A DNA stretch of 63,789 nucleotides, filler included, from Stramenopiles sp. TOSAG23-3 (lineage: Eukaryota), in assembly GCA_900128585.1 (NCBI GenBank). It is 48 parts of 48 records of this genome, joined end to end, with 100 filler letters (N's around TTAATTAATTAA, not from the genome) between each part and the next. Parts side by side here need not be neighbours in the genome. Positions count along the whole stretch, not along the records: positions 21,421 to 22,653 come from LT646207.1; 47 more parts are not named here. One strand, written 5' to 3'. Under the pieces are notes generated by a model. It was not told the DNA's origin. It saw nothing but the letters and a program-made list of their open reading frames with translations, and did not search any database. Within the stretch, counting starts at the first letter, position 1. Every line of letters starts with the position of its first letter. Below, in pieces: positions 307 to 48,517 of the stretch. The position numbers and the translations under genes were made by a program.

Positions 307-1242
307 ATGGTCGATAGAGTCACTCCGAACAAAGCGCGGAAGCTCGTGCAGCAGACATGGAGGGGCAACAACCACTTCGTTCAACTGTGTGGGGGGCGCA
401 AAGTCATGCTTGTGAGGGGGGAGATGGTCCCTTTCATCTCCTTGTTTTTATTGACGCTTGTCTTTGTGACGTACTATGTGGCCGTGGAGCCTTATTTCGG
501 GCCTAGAACGTATTACATCACCACCGTTTTTTCTGGGCTATGTTGTGTTTTGAGTTATCAAAATTTTTGTTTGGCTTGGTTGAGCGACCCCGGGGTTATA
601 CCAAGGCGCCATGTGATCAAGTCAAAGTTCGCACTGTCCCTGGACATCAGCACGTCTCAGCGCTCGAAGCAAGTCCTTGTTATCAACGGGAAAAGGATGG
701 ACTTGCGATACTGCCGAACGTGCAACATCGTTCGCCCCCCGAGGGCACAGCACTGCATCGTTTGCAACAACTGCATCGAACGTTACGACCACCATTGCCC
801 GTGGGTTGGAAACTGTGTTGGTGGAAGAAATTACAGGTACTTTTACCGGTTCGTATCGGTTACGTTCCTTCTGGACGTTTACATGATCGTGATGGCATGC
901 CTGAAGATGGGCTGGCACGCCGACGGCTTCGGCGGCGGAATTGCGGCCGAGCCGTGGAATTTGGTGTTGGTAATATTCAATTTCTTGATGGGCCTGTTTG
1001 TTGGTGGACTGTGGGTGTTTCACACGTACCTGGTCTCGACGAACCAGACGACGTACGACAACCTTCGCCAGGCCAGGGTTGGGGCCTTTGGAACCGGCTG
1101 CGAGCTTCTTGCGGACCTGTTCTATCTGCAAGAACCTTCAAAAGTAAAACCGAACGATTACGTGGAAGGAAGGAAGGAAGGAAGGAAGGAAGGAAGGAAG
1201 GATGGATGGATAAAATTAAAAAAAGTCATTCTATTGCCTTAT
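307..1242 (+). CDS. DHHC-type palmitoyl acyltransferase (ZDHHC family); 3' end uncertain or truncated
   Basis: Cys-rich domain RYCRTCNIVRPPRAQHCIVCNNCIERYDHHCPWVGNCVGGRNYRYF, DPG motif, NQTTYD motif and 4 TM helices. The tail runs into a GGAA microsatellite. Confidence 0.95.
1164..1210 (+). repeat. (GGAA)n/(GGAT)n microsatellite
   Basis: Read directly from the sequence. Confidence 0.9.
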
Positions 1243-1342
1243 NNNNNNNNNNNNNNNNNNNNNNNNNNNNNNNNNNNNNNNNNNNNTTAATTAATTAANN
1301 NNNNNNNNNNNNNNNNNNNNNNNNNNNNNNNNNNNNNNNNNN
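1243..1342. other. Artificial contig spacer (N-run + TTAATTAATTAA + N-run); first of 47 in the window
   Basis: The same 100-bp pattern recurs about every 1.33 kb. The linker has stops in all six frames, and contig lengths fall steadily from about 1242 to about 1221 bp. Confidence 0.99.
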
Positions 1343-3419
1343 CTTCCCATTACCATGTGTTGCTCGTACGCTCATCGTGTTATCAAGTCCCGCAGCGTCC
1401 GCGGGGTACGTACAAGATTTATTGCCGCAAGAACAACTTTTGCTTAACTTTTTTCGTGAAAATCCCTTTGTGGAAAGTTGTCTGGATTCCTGATAACACA
1501 AACTTGCAGTCAATTATATCTTATGCTTCGCTTTCAAGAATGCAATACGTAACACAATACAGAGTATGGAATAACACACACCTCTTGAGAACAAGGCAAT
1601 TAAATAAACGGAATAGAAACCGAACGCATGTATAATACAATTTTATATTCTTATTTTTTTATTATTGAGTTGTTGTTGTTGTTTTTAGTTTTTTTTTAGT
1701 TTTAATAATCGTCTTCGTTCTCTCTCTTCACTTCTATTATATTGTTCAAACCAACATATTTTATACATCATAGTCTAGAATAATAATTAAATAACTGCTG
1801 GGGGGACATTTATTATTAGACCCTACTATTAATAGTTAAAATAGCATCGGACAACAGCGCATGTCTTGCAATGCGCGCACGTGAGACTCGACCGATGTAA
1901 CCGTTCTTTTGCGTCATTCCTATTCCATTCTATTGTATAACCGTGTTAGTCTATTAGTCTGTCTATATAATTTAATGGTTTAGATAGTCTAGGTACGAGG
2001 AGGAGTTGCAGTTTGTCAATTTCTACAAAGTATTTCTTGTTCCATTGAGTAGTCTAGTTATTAGTCTACGAGAAGTTAATATATATTTTATACAACTACA
2101 GACGACTAGTTATTTACAAATTAAAAAGAAGAGTATAGTGATTTGTGCATCACCCAATTGCACGCAAGTACGAGTTAAATTAAACCATTTCGAGGATCGA
2201 GGACTGCATAGACTAAAATTAATCAGCTTTATTATGACTACGAGGATTAGTAGTCCTCGTGAAGTCGTGCTTAGCCTCGACTCGACTCGTATAATATTAT
2301 AGTCGTCTTTTCATTTTGATTAGTCGTCTACGAGGATACGAGGAATCTACCGAGCTCTCGTACTCCTCGTACTCCTCATAGTAGTTTAACAAACAAACAA
2401 CTGTGTGTTCGAATGTCAGCAGTTGAACTTTCATAATAATTAATGCAGCAAGCAGAATATACGAACGTAAAATTTTTTTTATTTTATTATTATTTTTTTA
2501 TATTATACATTGAATAATATTAAAAGTTTTAACAGGTAAATAGCGATACATCCTTATTTTCATCGTCGCTTTTTTTTTTTTTTTNNNNNNNNNNNNNNNN
2601 NNNNNNNNNNNNNNNNNNNNNNNNNNNNTTAATTAATTAANNNNNNNNNNNNNNNNNNNNNNNNNNNNNNNNNNNNNNNNNNNNTGCAGATGGTACATTT
2701 CTCTCCTTGTTCACCAACCCTACCTCCGCCAAAAAGAAAGAAAAAAAACAACAAACTAACTAAGTGTACATACACTAGAGAGGTACGCTGTACATATAAA
2801 TACCCACACTCCCACAACCAACCAGGCACTAGCTACACAAGACCCACGTGATGAACGAACAAATGAATGAATTAAAGAGATAAATAAAAACAATTCTATT
2901 CAAACCGATGGACAAAACGTACACATTCTTTATCTAATCCTGTCATTCTTTTCCTACCTTATCTACAACCTTCGCCATTTTCTTGAAACTTGAAAATTGA
3001 AAATTGAAAGTATATAGAATCTTTTGTGACGTCTTTTCTTCTTCTTCTTTCTTCGATGTGAAGAAGAAGAATGATTTTTTGATCTCATCGCGCGGGAAAC
3101 GACAAGGACCATTTCTATAACCCTATTTATAACACATAGGGTTACACATAATGTTATAATTAGGGTATATAGATGGCCACAAAAAAAAACAACAATTTTG
3201 TTGTTGTTTTTTTTTGATGGAAGAAATATTTTTGGAAAATTGGAGGAACATGTGGACGAATGCGATTTCCTAAAAAAAGAAGAGAAGGTTATTTATACGT
3301 TTGAATGAAATTGAAAGGAAAGTATTTGATGCAATTAGTTCGACTAGATTTGATACGGAAGTTTATTACGGATTATTGTTATTTTCTTTTTGTTCGTTTA
3401 TTGTATTCTTTTCTTGAGC

Positions 3420-3926
3420 ATGGGACGAAAGCGAAAGCATGGTGGCGGAGGGGACGGGTGTAAGAAGAAGGGAAAGGGGAGTTCTTTGGTCGCGAGGGCA
3501 AAGCTGTTACGGCAGCAGAGTCATATGCGGGGGAAAGACATTAGCGTTTTGAAACGAAAGGAGGAGGCATGGGTCCAGGTAAGAAACAAGTACCAGCGTT
3601 CTATTGCGAGAATCCCTTACCTTCCGCAGATGGACACGCTGCTTGTGGGGGAGGGAAACTTCAGTTTTGCGCGGGCGTTGACGCGACACTTTCAGCGGCT
3701 GCGCGAAAAGAGGGAGCGGCGGCAGGCAAAGTGGGAGGCGAAGAAGGAGGACGAGGCCAGTGCCACCACCGCCACAAACACGGGAAAAGGAAGTGCCGAC
3801 GATGCGGCGGTGGACACGGAAAAGGCCGCAAAGGCGCTTGAGGACGCCGTCTACTTGGCCCAGATGCCAGCGACCGTATACTCGACGACGTCGGTCGCCG
3901 GCTTGAAAAAAGCTCGCCGGCTGGCC
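3420..3926 (+). CDS. DUF2431 / BMT5-like rRNA (uridine-N3) methyltransferase, N-terminal part (3' truncated)
   Basis: TLLVGEGNFSFARAL signature of DUF2431 (BMT5/FDXACB1) and a basic N-terminus (MGRKRKH). Confidence 0.8.
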
Positions 3927-4027
3927 NNNNNNNNNNNNNNNNNNNNNNNNNNNNNNNNNNNNNNNNNNNNTTAATTAATTAANNNNNNNNNNNNNNNNNN
4001 NNNNNNNNNNNNNNNNNNNNNNNNNNG

Positions 4028-4110
4028 TGCAACGTGAATGATCTCAACGAGATGACCCTTCTCCACAATTTGCGACAACGGTTTAAGCAGCAGAAGATAT
4101 ACACTAGCTT
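4028..4110 (+). CDS. Fragment of myosin motor domain N-terminus (out of frame with the downstream tail)
   Basis: Translates as CNVNDLNEMTLLHNLRQRFKQQKIYTS, matching the myosin head motif L.E..LL.NL..RF....IYT. Confidence 0.75.
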
Positions 4111-5268
4111 TCAGTAATCAAAAAGAGTCTTACCGATTTGCCGTCGGCGTTCCAGAAAAAATCCACCAGCATCCATAAGTGCATCCTCGGATATTCTAGG
4201 GATAAAAGCATGGCTTTCCCTGCTATGCTGGCACAAAATGTCCTAAAATTAGGAATAGAAAACAACGATCTCTGCGATGAAATATACGTTCAGATTGTCA
4301 AGCAGCTATCCGAAAACCCAAAACAAGAAAGCGTCGAGCGAGTTTGGCAGTTGATGTGCATGTGCGTGGGTACGTTCCCACCATCTGCTGAATTTGAATT
4401 TTTCTTGCTGCACTTCATCGTTAACGCATTGGGCAGTACAGGGATCGTTTCGGACTATGCTAAATATGCTTACCGGCGCTTGGAGGGGATACTATCCCAA
4501 GGTGCTTCTGGTTTTGTTCCAACGGTAGAAGAAATTGATGCGTACAACGACCGACCGCCAATTCTGGTTTCGATTCTTCTGGTAGATGGAAGTCCCCTGA
4601 CAGAAAACTTGCCAATTACCCCCGATTTGAATGTAGGCAAGATCTTGGAAATCTGCAACCATTTCTTGGATGTCGAAGATGAAAGAAAGAAGCACTTTGG
4701 CATCTTTGCTGTTCGCACAGCAGCATCTTCGTTCGCCTATTCTCCAGAACCGCTGAAAAACACTGAGTTCATGGGCGACATTATTGCCAAAGCCAGCCGC
4801 CGTGATGAAAGCATAAAATTCGTTTTCAAAAGAAAAATTGTGCTGAAGAAGCATGAAGTTGAGTCTGAAGACGATATGTTTTTGAGGTTGATGCTGTTGC
4901 AAGCCGTTGATAACTTTATTGAGGGTTTGTATTATATTGAAAACGAAGAAGAAGTTTGCAAAATGGTAGCAAAAACGGTATTTTGCGATGTTGATGGCGA
5001 GTGGCCAGAATCTGTAGCCGATTTAGTCGAAGATGCATGCTTGATAGAGTACGTACCGAAAGCAATCAGGGAAAACTTCAGTGACAATGAATGGGGTGAA
5101 AAGATTTTCTCGTTCGGCGAAACGTTAGACGACCCCACTGACGTTCAAGATGAGGTCCTTCAGTGGGCTACTGAACAGCCATTTTTCGGCTGCCTGCGAT
5201 TTCACTGCACTTTGGAGCCCCCAAAAGAAGGCCAGACTGCTGGCTTGGACATCTTACGTTCTCTGCCG
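4108..5268 (+). CDS. MyTH4-FERM domain region (unconventional myosin tail), partial
   Basis: MyTH4 motifs LCDEIYVQIVKQLSENP and VWQLMCMCVGTFPPS, followed by a FERM-like region (FVFKRKIVL, LMLLQAV, QPFFGC). Confidence 0.9.
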
Positions 5269-8755: not shown

Positions 8756-9431
8756 TGAACAGTTCTGACTGAGCTAGACGGCAAAGCACTCAATGAAATT
8801 GAGGCTCAAAACAGAATGTAGGAGTTCAAAACCAGGAGAAATGTTTCTGTGGCTAAAACACTCGGCGCAGCTATTTCAATAAATTGTCGTCGTGTTGGAA
8901 AAGATTTCAATGTGTGTGGTCACCAGTACATTTTAATGCACAATTGGAATTGCCAAATAATCAACAAATGAAAACAAAAGAATATAAATACACAGTAATG
9001 AAATTTTCTTACTTCATTTAATTAATACCAGGTTCAATGTACACTACAAATCCGATTTTGTGTCCAGAGACCAGAGAGGGACGAGGGACGTGAACTTTTT
9101 TTTATTAAAAAACTAGCAGGGAGTTAGTGTTACGCAAAATAACATCTAATAACAACATCTTCTAAAATGACGAAAATTTTCTAAGATAAATTCTTAGTTC
9201 TTTTTTTTTTTTAATAGAAGATATTTTTAATATTTATTCTAGTCGTTCTATTTAAAATATTTAAAATATTTTACCGTTTGTTTTTTTGTTANNNNNNNNN
9301 NNNNNNNNNNNNNNNNNNNNNNNNNNNNNNNNNNNTTAATTAATTAANNNNNNNNNNNNNNNNNNNNNNNNNNNNNNNNNNNNNNNNNNNNAAACCACCC
9401 CCTGAACCGGCTAGCATATGGGACGATTGTT

Positions 9432-9818
9432 TCAGTTGAACTTGAGCGTTATCTTTCCACTTTTTGTAGACAGGTTTCTGCCGTGTTTTTCCCACTCGTC
9501 TTTTATAGACTTTTTGTAGCGGCTGTTCTTTTTTACAATATCTTTTTTGTTGACTCTATCTTTGAGGATAAAGTAGTAATCAAAGGTATCGTCGTCTCCA
9601 CTGAGCTGGGTCATCTTGTAGAAGACGCCCTTTTTGTACTCAAGCTTCGACGTAATGGAACGGTCGCAACTTAATCGGTCTTTGCCGATTTCAATTTTTT
9701 TGCGGTCTTTGTAGAACCACAAACGAACCCAGTCCTCTTTGTCCCTATGTTCGTGCTCCTTGTCGGTGACCGAACTGGGAACGTAGTAGTTGACGCTATC
9801 GATTTGGATAACCGACAT
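9432..9818 (-). CDS. Hypothetical protein, probably viral (PLV-associated)
   Basis: 128-aa complete ORF divergent from the packaging ATPase across only 38 bp. Confidence 0.65.
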   Translation of the reverse strand: MSVIQIDSVNYYVPSSVTDKEHEHRDKEDWVRLWFYKDRKKIEIGKDRLSCDRSITSKLEYKKGVFYKMTQLSGDDDTFDYYFILKDRVNKKDIVKKNSRYKKSIKDEWEKHGRNLSTKSGKITLKFN

Positions 9819-9856
9819 CTATACAATAAGTATATAAATTATCTCAGGTATAGTAA

Positions 9857-10609
9857 ATGGAAAATGACGAGTTAAACATCATTCCAATAAAGGACGATGA
9901 AGACGAAATCAAACGGGGTAAAAAGAAACAGCTACACCCACACTTACCCGACATATACAAAGGTGAACTGCTTGCAATAATCGCCCCAATCCGTAGTGGC
10001 AAGTCGGTACTTTGGAACAACCTGCTACTGTCAGACGCTTTCTTCAACGATATGTTTTCATCGGTGAACATCATAAGCAATACCATCGCTTCTGACAAAT
10101 CTAGCAGGTTCAGTTACAAAAAATTTAAGAACACCTGTCACGACATGTACGACGACTCGATAATTAAAAATTTAATCAAGCGACAAAAGACAAAGATAGA
10201 CAACAACGACGAGGATACAAGTTTCTGTTTGATACTAGACGACTTGCTGAATCAGTTTTCAAAGACAGGAAGGAGGGGACAAGAAGCGATTTCGTTTGCT
10301 AGTCGTTTTAGACACTACCGAAAAATGCCAGACCCAGCCATGCTGCTCTACTCGACCCAGAGGTACTTTGACTTAAATAGGGTTGTTCGAAACAATGCTA
10401 CTGGACTAATGTTTAGCGGAAACATAAAGAGCACAAAGGAATGGGAGGATATCATGGACGACTTCGCCGATGCTTTTGAAGGAAGAAAGCACTTCGAGGA
10501 GATGATAAAGGTCGTACAACAGAAACCGTTTCAATGGTTGTACTTAAAAATGGACAGGACTCCACCAGAGGCGTACCTCAACTTTACGACAAAGCTTTAC
10601 CCAAAATAA
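9857..10609 (+). CDS. A32/FtsK-HerA-like DNA packaging ATPase of Polinton-like virus/virophage type
   Basis: LHPHLP leader, Walker A APIRSGKS, Walker B LILDD, Arg finger SRFRHY, STQ motif and VRNN; 250 aa. Confidence 0.88.
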   Translation: MENDELNIIPIKDDEDEIKRGKKKQLHPHLPDIYKGELLAIIAPIRSGKSVLWNNLLLSDAFFNDMFSSVNIISNTIASDKSSRFSYKKFKNTCHDMYDDSIIKNLIKRQKTKIDNNDEDTSFCLILDDLLNQFSKTGRRGQEAISFASRFRHYRKMPDPAMLLYSTQRYFDLNRVVRNNATGLMFSGNIKSTKEWEDIMDDFADAFEGRKHFEEMIKVVQQKPFQWLYLKMDRTPPEAYLNFTTKLYPK

Positions 10610-10731
10610 TATGTTTAAATATAAATATAATNNNNNNNNNNNNNNNNNNNNNNNNNNNNNNNNNNNNNNNNNNNNTTAATTAATTAANNNNNNNNNNNNN
10701 NNNNNNNNNNNNNNNNNNNNNNNNNNNNNNN

Positions 10732-16080: not shown

Positions 16081-16671
16081 AAAGGCAAGCTGTTTCGACA
16101 CATTGAAACACATCCGGGAACGAAAGCGAAAGCCGAATGGGCACAGCATTACATGAAGGCGAAAAAAGGGTGCGTGACAAATTTCTCCGAACGCTTGATC
16201 GCGTTTGCGGCAGTAGAGGGTATTATGTTCTCTAGCTCGTTCTGTGCTCTGTTCTGGTTAAAGAACAAAGGCCTCTGCCCGGGCTTAACTTTCTCCAACG
16301 AGTTAATCTCAAGGGACGAGGGGTTGCACCGGGACTTTGCGGTTGCCATGTACAAGATGTGTCCTAAATTACCACGAAAAAAGGTACTTGAAATCGTGGA
16401 AAGTGCGGTACATGCTGAGATGCAATTCGTCAACCATTCGCTACCGGAAAATTTGAGAGGCATGAACCATTTGATGATGTACCAGTACGTTCAATTTGTG
16501 GCGGACCATCTGTTAAACGCGTTGGGTTACAATAAGCATTACAAGGTTACGAACCCCTTTCCATTCATGGACATGATCAGCCTAGAAGGCAAAACGAATT
16601 TTTTCGAGAGGAGGGTGGCCGAATATTCCAAGCCGTCCGATATCTCATTCGGGATGGACGTTGCTTTTTAA
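16081..16671 (+). CDS. Ribonucleotide reductase small subunit (R2), 5' truncated, probably viral
   Basis: FAAVEGIMFSSSFCALFWLK, SNELISRDEGLH, NPFPFMDMISLEGKTNFFERRVAEY, C-terminal F. Confidence 0.95.
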   Translation, partial: KGKLFRHIETHPGTKAKAEWAQHYMKAKKGCVTNFSERLIAFAAVEGIMFSSSFCALFWLKNKGLCPGLTFSNELISRDEGLHRDFAVAMYKMCPKLPRKKVLEIVESAVHAEMQFVNHSLPENLRGMNHLMMYQYVQFVADHLLNALGYNKHYKVTNPFPFMDMISLEGKTNFFERRVAEYSKPSDISFGMDVAF

Positions 16672-21320: not shown

Positions 21321-21509
21321 NNNNNNNNNNNNNNNNNNNNNNNNNNNNNNNNNNNNNNNNNNNNTTAATTAATTAANNNNNNNNNNNNNNNNNNNNNNNN
21401 NNNNNNNNNNNNNNNNNNNNATACAATGGACGCCATTTATTATCAATCGTGCAAATGTTATACTGTAATTAAACAAATAATGCTATTAATAAGCTCTATG
21501 TACAATCAA

Positions 21510-22034
21510 ATGGAAACAACAAAGAAGAAGATATTGTTTAAACGTATGAACCAACTGTATGGAATGATAGTAAGACCACCGTATTTAGAAGCACGAAGAA
21601 GGGATTTCATCACATTCATCGAAAACCATTTGTTAAAGATGTTGAAAACAAAGGAATTGTACCGAATATATTACACCATTCTGCCTTTAGAGAAGCATTT
21701 TAAAGGTGTAGAAGAACAGACTTTTATTTCTGCCATAAAGGACGAAAAGACGTATAGAAAAGCTTTAGTACGAATCAAATGTGAAGACTTTCAATGGTAC
21801 CGGCCGAAGAACATTACAGTCACACAAAGTATACCGGTAGAGGCATTGGTGAATAGGGACGGCATGGCTGTGGGCAGAGGCTTGAAAACCGCCGGTAATG
21901 TAGTGTTTCGGTGTTTGAAATGCGGCGAAATAAGCAGTACAGCAGAGTTGTATTGGAAACATCAAGAGACACACGGTAATCTTAGAGTACGAAAAATTCA
22001 AAGAATAGAAAGAGTAAATCCATTTAAGTTTTAA
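21510..22034 (+). CDS. Hypothetical protein with C-terminal C2H2 zinc finger (copy 1)
   Basis: FRCLKCGEISSTAELYWKHQETHG. Probable start METTKK at 21510 (ORF open from 21426). Confidence 0.75.
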   Translation: METTKKKILFKRMNQLYGMIVRPPYLEARRRDFITFIENHLLKMLKTKELYRIYYTILPLEKHFKGVEEQTFISAIKDEKTYRKALVRIKCEDFQWYRPKNITVTQSIPVEALVNRDGMAVGRGLKTAGNVVFRCLKCGEISSTAELYWKHQETHGNLRVRKIQRIERVNPFKF

Positions 22035-22653
22035 AGTTCAAGGAATGTGGACGCGCCTTTATCACTGGCATGTAAGTAAATGCTGGTAGTGGCGATGGAT
22101 GCATGGCCTAAATTTTTCGATACTGTAGCAAGATCGCACTTGTTACGTAGGCTTATCGTAGCAAAAGCATGCCTCAGGTAATGGGCGGAAGCGTTGTATT
22201 TACCTAGCACCTTATTAACGCGTTTTGAGGCAGCACTCTTACTGAGAGCCTTGTTGCATCTGCCTTTGAATATGAAGCCTTTGCGAGTCATCAATATAGG
22301 CTTTAGCAAGGCTGAAGTACGAGGACCCATTGGAATTGTCCTCACTTTTTTGCCTTTACCGATTACCGTAAATGTTAGACAGCCATCGGCACGTTCCTTG
22401 ATCATATTCCTATGTAAAGTACGGCATTCAGTTAATCTGAGTCCTAGGTAGAACAGCAATTGTAACAGCAGTTTTGTATCACCCTTTGCACTGAGTATGG
22501 CTTCGATACACGACTGTTGCGGTAAATGGCGTTCAACTCGGATCTGGTTTTTCCGGGGAACTTTCAAGCATTTTGAAATGTCTTTGTTAAGGTAATCCAT
22601 TCGGTAACAATATTTGAAAAAGCTTTTAACGGCCGCAATGCAACGTCTGCTCG
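22031..22653 (-). CDS. XerC/D-type tyrosine recombinase (copy 1), 5' truncated
   Basis: Catalytic set R (GLRLTE), K (GKGKKVR), HxxR (HYLRHAFAT), H (LGHASIATT), Y (IYLH). The frame stays open to the contig end with RRCIAAVKSFFKY. Confidence 0.95.
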
Positions 22654-34631: not shown

Positions 34632-34820
34632 NNNNNNNNNNNNNNNNNNNNNNNNNNNNNNNNNNNNNNNNNNNNTTAATTAATTAANNNNNNNNNNNNN
34701 NNNNNNNNNNNNNNNNNNNNNNNNNNNNNNNATACAATGGACGCCATTTATTATCAATCGTGCAAATGTTATACTGTAATTAAACAAATAATGCTATTAA
34801 TAAGCTCTATCTATATTCAA

Positions 34821-35342
34821 ATGGAAACAAAGAAGAAGATATTGTTTAAACGTATGAACAAGCTGTATGGAATGATAGTAAGACCGCCATATTTAGAAGC
34901 ACGAAGAAGGGACTTCATCACAGTCATCGAAAACCATTTGTTAAACATGCTGAAAAGTAAGGATCTGTACCGAATTTACTACACCATTCTCCCCTTAGAG
35001 AAGCATTTTAAAGGTGTAGAAGAACAGACTTTTATTTCTGCCATAAAAGATGACGCGACGTACAATAGAGCTTTAGTACGAATCAAATGTGAGGATTTTC
35101 AGTGGTACCGGCCGAAGAACATTACAGTTACACAAAGTATACCGGTAGAGGCATTGGTGAATAGGGACGGCATGGCTGTGGGCAGAGGGCTCAAAACCGC
35201 CGGTAATGTAGTGTTTCGGTGTTTGAAATGCGGCGAAATAAGCAGTACAGCAGAGTTGTATTGGAAACACCAAGAGACACACGGTAATCTTAGAGTACGA
35301 AAAATTCAAAGAATAGAAAGAGTAAATCAGTACAAATTTTAA
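34821..35342 (+). CDS. Hypothetical protein with C-terminal C2H2 zinc finger (copy 2)
   Basis: Near-identical to 21510-22034. Confidence 0.75.
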   Translation: METKKKILFKRMNKLYGMIVRPPYLEARRRDFITVIENHLLNMLKSKDLYRIYYTILPLEKHFKGVEEQTFISAIKDDATYNRALVRIKCEDFQWYRPKNITVTQSIPVEALVNRDGMAVGRGLKTAGNVVFRCLKCGEISSTAELYWKHQETHGNLRVRKIQRIERVNQYKF

Positions 35343-35961
35343 AGTTCAAGGAATGTCGACGCGCCTTTATCACTGGCATGTAAGTAAATGCTGGTAGTGG
35401 CGATGGATGCATGACCTAGATTCTTAGAGACAGTCGCAAGATCACACTTATTACGTAGGCTTATCGTAGCGAACGCATGCCTCAGGTAATGGGCGGAAGC
35501 GTTGTATTTACCTAGCACCTTATTAACGCGTTTTGAGGCAGCACTCTTACTAAGCGCCTTATTGTGCCGGCCTTTGAATATGAAGCCTTTGCGAGTCATC
35601 AATATAGGCTTTAGCAGGGCTGAAGTACGAGGGCCCATTGGAACTGTCCTCACTTTATTGCCTTTACCGATTACCGTAAATGTTAGACAGCCATCCGCGC
35701 GCTCTTTTATCATATTCCTGTGTAAAGTACGGCATTCAGAAAGTCTTAGTCCCAAGTAGAACAGTAACTGAAGCAGCAGTTTTGTGTCGCCCTTTGCGCT
35801 GAGTATGGCTTCGATACACGACTGTTGCGGTAAATGGCGTTCCACTTTTATTTGATTCTTCTTGGGAACCCTCAAGCATTTGGAAATGTCTTTGTTAAGG
35901 TAATCCATTCGGTAACAATATTTGAAAAAGCTTTTAACGGCCGCAATGCAACGTCTGCTCG
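35339..35961 (-). CDS. XerC/D-type tyrosine recombinase (copy 2), 5' truncated
   Basis: Same R-K-HxxR-H-Y set as copy 1, with few amino acid changes. Confidence 0.95.
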
Positions 35962-37390: not shown

Positions 37391-38066
37391 CCAAAAATAC
37401 TGGACGGCACTTCGCAAAAAGATTAAAATCATGCATGACGTCGCCCTTTTAACAAACCGTAGCGGCACGCCTCCACGGATTTGCGAAACAGGGTTCAATG
37501 CTGGCCACTCTGCCTTGATATGGCTGTTATCCCATCCTGGATCCACCGTCGTTTCTTTTGATTTAGGAAAAAACGTTTATGTTCGAGCAGCGTACGGTTG
37601 GTTCAAGGAGTATTTTCCTGGCCGGGTAGATCTGCAATTAGGCGATTCCAAGCAGACCTTGCCTGCGTATAGACGAAAATATCCGGGAGCACCTCCTTGT
37701 GATTTATGGTTCGTTGATGGCGGCCACGACTTTGAGACTGCCTCTAGCGACCTTCAGCATGCGATTGCAATGTCATCGGAACAAACAGTAATCATCATGG
37801 ATGACGTTGATTTTGGCATGGTTTCGAAAGCATGGCAGAATGCAATTGCTTCTAAAAGCATAGCCGAGCTTGGCCGCGTACGAAGTATATACCAGCCATG
37901 CATAGAAATTGAAGATACATATTTTTCGGCAATCACGCCTTGTGCGCTTTGTCAAGAACCCGGTGCAGCAGAAAAATACGGGGAGAACTGCCGTGGCGCT
38001 TCAGTAACTGACGTTACTGTGGCATATGGTCAAGTGCTCTCTGGGGAAAAGACCGTGTTATTATAA
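37391..38066 (+). CDS. Class I SAM-dependent methyltransferase (Methyltransf_24-like), 5' truncated
   Basis: ICETGFNAGHSAL, VVSFDLG, GDSKQTLP, CDLWFVDGGH. Confidence 0.85.
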
Positions 38067-48013: not shown

Positions 48014-48517
48014 GAGGTCCGTCGTGTCGGGACGGTGGTTCGAACCCAGATTCCCTTAAAGCTGGCCTGGGCGATGACGATACACAAGAGCCAGGGTCTT
48101 TCCTTGGACTGGCTAGAAGTTCATTGCCGAAAAACGTTTACCGATGGGCAGGCGTACGTGGCGCTCAGCCGTGCCGTAGATTTAAACTCCCTTGCACTGT
48201 GTGGTGGCCTTCCCTCTTACCGAGGCCAAACCAGCCCCCTGGTAGGAAGGTTTTACAGCCTGAACGCTGCGGATGGCGGTGGCAGCGCGACTGAAGGAAG
48301 TAGCACCGGCGCGCCGTCACGATTTTGTTGCGCCAATGGCCTTCCCCGATGGGACGAAGAAAATGCACCGACGTGCAGCTGTGGACGCAGGTGCGCCAAA
48401 AAAACAGTGCCCCCGGGGGATGGCGATGATTATGTCCCAGGGACAGGACGGCGGATTGAATGGTTTTGTTCAAAAAAACTATGCGGGTATATTTCGCACT
48501 CCAAAGAGATTTGTTGA
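48014..48517 (+). CDS. PIF1-family helicase C-terminus with GRF-type zinc finger
   Basis: [38 protein letters not shown]...[15 protein letters not shown]. Confidence 0.9.

Follow-up and report, generated by a model that had tools for sequence, protein, structure and literature searches.

Two diverged copies of a convergent gene pair for a Xer-like tyrosine recombinase and a C2H2 zinc-finger protein in a stramenopile assembly: a probable fragment of a larger eukaryotic element or virus

The genome assembly of Stramenopiles sp. TOSAG23-3 (GCA_900128585.1) contains two contigs in which a gene for a bacterial-type tyrosine recombinase converges with a gene for a small C2H2 zinc-finger protein. 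These contigs, found at positions 21421-22653 (LT646207.1) and 34732-35961 of the 63,789 bases analyzed here (the window), are the arms of one assembly bubble, and they probably represent two diverged copies of a 1.2-kb stretch of a larger eukaryotic DNA element or virus that is at least 20 kb in size, gene-dense and widespread in seawater. The window consists of 49 contigs (one split by a gap) of 1221-1242 nt, sorted by length and separated by N-TTAATTAATTAA-N spacers that act as a stop in all six frames. Because it is made of joined, length-sorted contigs, adjacent contigs are unrelated and their adjacency gives no genomic context. Information on the surroundings of the gene pair comes instead from four loci, named L001 to L004, that were returned by one metagenome scan with the zinc-finger alignment.

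Copy 1 (21421-22653) is a complete contig of 1233 nt and copy 2 (34732-35961) a complete contig of 1230 nt. In a global alignment they are 92.05% identical, with 98 of the 1233 columns differing, including one 3-nt indel. All differences lie between columns 80 and 1154, which leaves exactly 79 identical bases at either end: the left 79 nt (21421-21499, equal to 34732-34810, the first differing column being column 80) and the right 79 nt (22575-22653, equal to 35883-35961, after the last differing column, 1154), the latter located within the recombinase gene. Identical stretches of exactly the same size at both ends are the signature of graph nodes shared by both arms, and this is why the two contigs are recognized as a bubble. 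They have 682 31-mers in common, and the next pair among all 49 contigs compared has 30; the bubble proposed in the initial annotation is thus the only pair of its kind in the window. Both arms also carry, as had been reported there, the same convergent gene pair, formed by a zinc-finger open reading frame (ORF) on the plus strand and a recombinase ORF on the minus strand whose stops overlap by 4 nt (TTAA). A third, divergent gene on the minus strand is cut by the contig end so that its start codon and first codons are left (21421-21436). These left 16 nt of each arm read, as the reverse complement, M-A-S-I, as in the 219-aa ORF of L003 (9298-9957) of which this gene is an orthologue (read by eye). 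The first three bases of both arms (ATA; 21421-21423 and 34732-34734) fall outside the L003 alignment, which begins at base 4, and also differ from the contig of an RNA library that extends leftward; a variant or an artefact of the contig end may account for them.

Both genes of the pair are maintained by selection in both copies, as indicated by the ratio of non-synonymous to synonymous divergence (dN/dS) obtained by the Nei-Gojobori method. The recombinase copies differ at 7 of 206 residues, with a synonymous divergence (dS) of 0.39 and a dN/dS of 0.06, and the zinc-finger ORFs at 14 of 202 aligned positions (one of which is an indel), with a dS of 0.24 and a dN/dS of 0.149. These values bear out the earlier proposal of mostly silent substitutions under purifying selection. 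The count of about seven amino acid changes in the recombinase also stands, and the segment in which they fall is 206 rather than 189 residues long.

The colinearity of the arms with the metagenome loci L001, L002 and L003 shows that the gene pair is part of something longer. Over about 1230 nt, the identity to L003, L002 and L001 is 93.0%, 91.5% and 78.1%, respectively, for copy 1 and 94.5%, 90.8% and 76.6% for copy 2. The arms being 92.05% identical to each other, variants of other samples are thus about as near to each arm as the opposite arm is. The mutual alignment of the three loci extends past the gene pair on both sides, and a self-contained recombinase/zinc-finger module or small recombinase-mobilized element, as originally suggested, is not what these loci present. 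Nor is the zinc-finger/recombinase pair obligatory, since in L004 the zinc-finger gene has an unrelated partner, an 877-aa ORF (2217-4850, minus strand) that lacks a significant Pfam match, is convergent with the zinc-finger gene and has the same 4-nt stop overlap. The zinc-finger domain stands there at the C-terminal end of a longer frame of 373 aa (1099-2220, plus strand), whose N-terminal extension gives a weak NADAR match (E 0.008). An attachment (att) site or element boundary upstream of the recombinase was considered and rejected: L002 and L003 align over 3.4 kb before an apparent break, which is a fast-evolving, AT-rich tandem-repeat intergenic region, and no boundary is placed there because the same small ORF begins after this region and synteny resumes.

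The stretch is marine in its distribution. Words sampled from it were found in 20 runs from 14 studies, all of them marine or seawater except two possible source runs. A marine metagenome (X4, one of four runs assembled) yielded three contigs at least 99% alike to the stretch, and an oligo-dT RNA library yielded two small contigs that are 93-98% alike, one of which runs past position 21424 into the 219-aa ORF (translation by eye). No contigs were recovered from runs X1 (the source) and X3 despite their high word shares, which may be a false negative, and the parts of the stretch left uncovered in X4 and in run X17 are uninformative.

The recombinase gene is located on the minus strand at 22031-22653 in copy 1 and at 35339-35961 in copy 2, in each case as the C-terminal 206 codons plus the stop codon. 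Its frame is open up to the contig end and the gene is therefore truncated, the N-terminal 58 residues of the 264-aa protein lying beyond the contig. The copy 1 product matches the Pfam family Phage_integrase (PF00589) with 80.8 bits against a cut-off of 27.1, and its relatives score 81.6-85.2 bits. Full-length relatives of 264 aa are 97% (P0004), 89% (P0005), 72% (P0006) and 43% (P0007) identical to the window copy; beyond P0007 identity falls to 36% or less, and some of these more distant proteins are named bacterial XerC/XerD by their sources. The N-terminal SAM-like core-binding domain (PF02899) is recognized in the full-length relatives of L001-L003 with 30.1-30.7 bits against a cut-off of 22.3, and in the window copies this domain lies beyond the contig end. 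The active-site residues R130, K157, H215, R218, H241 and Y250 (P0004 numbering) are invariant in the family alignment A2 and all present in both window copies, and in a pairwise alignment the R, K, HxxR, H and Y motifs align to those of E. coli XerD, in agreement with the initial claim of an intact catalytic set. The XerC/D-like character that had been assigned to the protein holds as well: positions 6-254 of the family profile match residues 12-281 of XerD (1a0p), an end-to-end alignment with an E value of 3.2e-40, and the profile also matches archaeal XerA (4a8e, 5hxy), IntI4 and XerH. Together these results support a bacterial-type (Xer-like) two-domain enzyme, predicted from its sequence to have an intact active site.

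The predicted enzyme shares its layout with XerC, XerD and XerA (XerD 1a0p; XerA 4a8e, 5hxy), in which a SAM-like core-binding domain at the N-terminus likewise precedes a catalytic domain, and the catalytic motifs are kept. The window family differs from XerD in being only about 30% identical to it, in its shorter length of 264 aa and in forming its own clade. In a FastTree phylogeny of 73 rows (the two window copies and P0004-P0074) all six rows of the family fall on a single branch with a support of 100; no donor is claimed for the recombinase because the tree has long branches and an arbitrary root. The closest prokaryote relatives, which include proteins of cyanobacteria, are at most 39% identical (one peptide pattern searched in 185,579 species, one genome each), matches in 50,697 phage records reach about 31% identity, and no match was found in the DNA of 72,556 plasmids. 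The neighbors of the recombinase in the ESM Atlas are generic integrase clusters, mostly bacterial. In contrast to bacterial Xer genes, those of the window family lie amid eukaryote-type genes, and neither a second, paired Xer gene nor a dif site nor an FtsK context was observed. The limited prokaryote identity, the separate clade and the presence of a RING finger and other eukaryote-type neighbors all speak against orthology with bacterial XerC/XerD.

The zinc-finger ORF of copy 1 (21426-22034, plus strand) is a maximal frame of 202 aa and that of copy 2 (34737-35342, plus strand) one of 201 aa. The true start is probably the ATG at 21498 or that at 21510, which gives a protein of about 174-178 aa; the relative P0124, which begins at MYNQMET, bears on this choice. 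The C2H2 finger noticed at the outset is present as a single C-x2-C-x12-H-x3-H motif (21912-21974, plus strand), with C163, C166, H179 and H183 of the 202-aa frame as ligands. These ligands are invariant in all 12 rows of alignment A4 and also in alignment A3, and the 12-row alignment contains an invariant block of the form G-x2-V-G-x-G-L ... C-x2-C ... Y-W-x-H-x3/4-H. The Pfam zf-C2H2 model (PF00096) scores the family at 18.1-18.5 bits, with copy 1 at 18.3, under its cut-off of 25.2, and six of the 12 members match it at E<=0.1. The family is tiny: four clusters were found by word-indexed search and eight proteins in total by profile search of 1.84 billion representatives, and it has no match in the prokaryote genomes of the 185,579 species searched.

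A model of the zinc-finger protein obtained with AlphaFold2 from the family alignment has a mean predicted local distance difference test (pLDDT) value of 86.6. Its residues 1-95 form a helical bundle, and the beta-rich part behind this bundle contains the finger. The C-terminal 81 residues modeled alone (pLDDT 77.9) superpose on many solved C2H2 fingers, among them those of AFV1p06, ZFAT, IKZF1 and Miz-1, with Z values of only 2-3.2; these superpositions, weak alone, fit a single classical C2H2 finger as far as the model goes. As in classical C2H2 fingers, the spacing is C-x2-C-x12-H-x3-H, and the predicted beta-beta-alpha unit may correspond to theirs; in contrast to them, the protein has one finger that is framed by two long beta strands, stands behind a helical bundle of about 95 aa and scores under the Pfam cut-off. 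For the whole protein no significant fold match was obtained with Foldseek against PDB, with BFVD or with VIA-align. A TFIIS-like layout is treated as a lead only, the best row in the Foldseek PDB search being a TFIIS chain at E 0.047 (template modeling score 0.24), the best in BFVD having an E value of 0.16 and the giant-virus TFIIS rows there lying at E 0.3-0.8. The wide VIA-align search reached Z values of up to 7.2, for the helical bundle only and inside the stated noise range. This protein of about 175 aa, restricted to one lineage, probably acts as a nucleic-acid-binding regulator.

The gene content of the larger element is best seen in L003, of which 15.3 kb of a 19.9-kb contig were examined; related contigs are otherwise 2.5 kb upward. 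This region contains 21 ORFs on both strands and is about 80% coding, with a largest ORF of 367 aa. Around the gene pair, and read from left to right, it encodes first a RING finger (37.6 bits, above the cut-off), then an endonuclease-VII-like protein (PHROG E 2.5e-23) and a protein of 299 aa, the L002 orthologue of which shows a chromo-like N-terminus (E 3.8e-4, under the cut-off). Next come the 219-aa ORF that adjoins the zinc-finger gene, the zinc-finger gene and the recombinase gene, followed by genes for a methyltransferase-like protein (26.7 bits, cut-off 27), a kinase-like protein (29.2 bits, cut-off 31.7) and an HNH endonuclease (50 bits). No Pfam or PHROG match was obtained for the other ORFs. 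The 40 nt upstream of 18 L003 genes are composed of 46% A and 9% G, and a Shine-Dalgarno-like motif was found in none of these 18 genes (background 8.5%; not significant alone). The sequence AATCA, a motif picked post hoc, occurs within 25 nt of the start in seven of the 18 genes, compared with a background of 3.4%; in the window, ACAATCAAATG stands at 21500-21512 in the zinc-finger gene. Repeats inside the L003 contig that could flank the gene pair were not found, the only pairs being of 12-13 nt and thus chance-sized. A TGGGATGT-type repeat of about 25 nt (80-96% alike) occurs in four divergent intergenic regions of L003 (1316-1340, 4098-4124, 8290-8321 and 11361-11388), one of the sites being directly upstream of the recombinase gene. 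It is unconserved in L002 and could serve several genes as a common promoter or protein-binding element.

The window also contains a contig of another origin, at 9392-10631, that must be kept apart from the recombinase/zinc-finger element. It carries an ORF of 250 aa that the ESM Atlas places among A32-like packaging ATPases (9857-10606, plus strand; score 0.98, 231 of 256 features) and a companion ORF (9435-9818, minus strand). The ATPase ORF is unrecognized by Pfam alone, and in the ESM Atlas it falls in clusters that are 82-100% viral, of Nucleocytoviricota and Preplasmiviricota. Its relatives are found on many contigs of 22-28 kb and in at least 80 IMG/VR contigs. From 80 of these polinton-like IMG/VR loci (1.03 Mb; one virus group) 28 family profiles were built; searched against 449 frames from the window and L001-L004, they matched both ORFs of this contig (E 2.6e-94 and 3.9e-35) and no other frame. 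By these matches the contig is a fragment from a polinton-like, virophage-size group of marine viruses. A common identity of this contig and the recombinase/zinc-finger element was ruled out: tblastn of the ATPase against L001-L004 gave no match, tblastx of L001-L004 against the window returned only the two arms, and the profiles had no match on L001-L004. Since there are no cross-matches between L001-L004 and the ATPase loci, the two are separate entities. Elsewhere in the window, Pfam domains found among 43 long frames mark the other contigs as eukaryotic (DHHC palmitoyltransferase, MyTH4, ankyrin, RRN3, UFC1, Arp2/3 p16, uDENN, WW and protein kinase), and an Rfam scan gave no match. Three further plus-strand features are a ribonucleotide reductase small chain fragment (16081-16668), a Methyltransf_24 domain (37392-38063) and a helicase C-terminal fragment with a weak Herpes_Helicase match under the cut-off (48014-48514). 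Ribonucleotide reductase, helicase and methyltransferase genes are found in hosts and large DNA viruses alike.

Tyrosine recombinases are resident in eukaryotic DNA in several kinds of elements, with which the present one can be compared. Cryptons are short units that consist essentially of the recombinase gene alone, and DIRS/Ngaro elements carry the recombinase beside a reverse transcriptase and RNase H. Compared by description only, both share with the present element a tyrosine recombinase that resides in eukaryotic DNA; a reverse transcriptase and RNase H were not found among the neighbors in L001-L004, and a short unit of the Crypton type is not seen in L001-L003, where synteny runs on at both sides without flanking repeats. 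Recombinases are also carried by small double-stranded DNA viruses and elements of aquatic protists, namely by virophages, virophage-like elements and polinton-like viruses (OLV11-like, Guillardia theta polinton-like virus, Sputnik and EMALE types). These enzymes have been proposed to integrate the element (PMC4642659; PMC8547959), and zinc-finger genes are mentioned in such virophage-like or polinton-like elements (PMC9356565). An unlikely candidate is a member of the Preplasmiviricota, either a polinton-like virus or a virophage, with a genome of about 20-25 kb and integration by its own tyrosine recombinase. Recombinase-encoding members of several such groups have been described (PMC4642659; PMC8547959; bioRxiv 10.64898/2026.06.19.733378), methyltransferase and endonuclease genes are listed among their accessory genes (bioRxiv 10.64898/2026.06.19.733378), the L003 contig has a length of 19.9 kb, and the same assembly includes the polinton-like contig at 9392-10631. 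However, no morphogenetic module (capsid or penton proteins, A32-like ATPase) is recognized beside the window-type recombinase in the 15.3 kb of L003, the largest ORF of which has 367 aa, and when 21 proteins of L003 and L004 were compared with the 80 polinton-like loci by tblastn, no match at E<=1e-3 was obtained, in contrast to 80 of 80 for the ATPase control. Moreover, the related contigs are all fragments of 2.5-19.9 kb with no pile-up at one size, whereas the ATPase group lies at 22-28 kb. The recombinases of OLV11-like type are described as recognizable only by iterated search with PSI-BLAST (PMC4642659), whereas the window recombinase is a plain Xer match that finds XerD directly; here the two are set apart by the published description and not by sequence.

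Slightly better placed, though still doubtful, is a fragment of a giant-virus-like (Nucleocytoviricota) genome, either infecting or endogenized. RING, kinase-like, methyltransferase, HNH and endonuclease-VII-like genes, a dense two-strand layout with short AT-rich intergenic regions and a repeat motif in four divergent intergenic regions of L003 all fit such a genome, as do the relatives, which are known only as fragmentary contigs, and the non-significant fold rows that tie the zinc-finger protein to giant-virus TFIIS. Yet these domain matches are generic and the fold rows at noise level, the three proteins searched in IMG/VR have no relative there, and no core gene (capsid, A32 ATPase, PolB, D5-like primase-helicase or VLTF3) is present among the 21 ORFs of L003, although 15 kb is too small to decide. 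Heterozygous alleles or recent paralogues of ordinary, non-mobile nuclear protist genes (a domesticated recombinase and a zinc-finger gene) would produce a bubble with identical flanks and purifying selection on both genes, and the guanine-cytosine content of the arms (0.40-0.41) lies inside the range of the remaining window contigs (0.33-0.54). This origin is nevertheless improbable: for alleles, the dS of 0.24-0.39 would be very high, no second such bubble occurs among the 49 contigs, the arms are as near or nearer to L003 from another sample (93.0 and 94.5%) than to each other (92.05%), and HNH and endonuclease-VII-like neighbors are unusual in nuclear genomes. The least credible source is bacterial, plasmid or phage contamination of the assembly. 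It would account for a Xer-type recombinase whose next-best relatives, at 30-36% identity, are bacterial (Ignavibacteriae, Kapabacteria and similar names, and cyanobacteria), and for its mostly bacterial ESM Atlas neighbors. Against it stand the lack of any relative above 39% identity in the prokaryote species searched, from which the zinc-finger family is absent, phage matches of no more than 31% and the empty plasmid search, the A-rich and G-poor leaders without Shine-Dalgarno-like motif and the RING-finger gene on the same contig of L003. The bacterial or phage flanks by which the initial annotation would have recognized a contaminant were not encountered around the relatives, which sit among genes with eukaryote-type domains.

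Most likely the two contigs come from a eukaryotic virus or integrative element that is unclassified; several observations weigh against this explanation. No capsid, packaging ATPase or polymerase gene, for which the first annotation had proposed to look, is recognized by Pfam or PHROGs in the 21 ORFs of the 15.3 kb of L003, and no att site, terminal repeat or host junction was seen in the L001-L003 comparison and repeat searches. The 28 polinton-like profiles have no match on L001-L004, and IMG/VR has no relative of the recombinase, of the zinc-finger alignment or of the L003 kinase-like protein. The kinase, methyltransferase and chromo matches are all under the Pfam cut-offs. The contigs of the RNA library are possibly DNA carry-over and so are not counted as expression, and a gene-dense nuclear region of some protist may be the source. 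A description of the recombinase/zinc-finger pair was not found in the literature; paper supplements, which lie outside the search, may list such genes.

In this reading, both copies were present in the DNA used for the protist assembly, and the assembler left them as arms of a bubble. By analogy with its family, the recombinase would cut and rejoin two short DNA sites via a Holliday-junction intermediate. There is roughly an even chance that its role is the integration and excision of the element, and a considerably smaller one that it resolves replication multimers of a circular genome. The kind of element is already known, because polinton-like viruses, virophages and virophage-like elements that bear recombinases are in print; particular to the present one are the plain Xer-type recombinase, the tiny zinc-finger family and a lineage that is missing from IMG/VR. 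A bolder and quite tentative proposal is that it represents a marine lineage, so far undescribed, of eukaryotic DNA viruses or integrative elements, without IMG/VR relatives and unrelated to the polinton-like group tested, which would have captured a Xer-type recombinase, combined it with chromatin-directed (chromo-like, RING) and private C2H2 proteins, and persisted in protist genomes as several diverged copies.

Marine protists are known to have viruses and elements that bear recombinases, the diversity of which is poorly charted. In this context, the recombinase/zinc-finger pair provides a clean and conserved marker of one lineage. Should the source assembly represent a single cell type, the two arms would tie this lineage to a host; otherwise, the contigs can be annotated as neither a contaminant nor a stand-alone transposon, nor as yet a classified virus.

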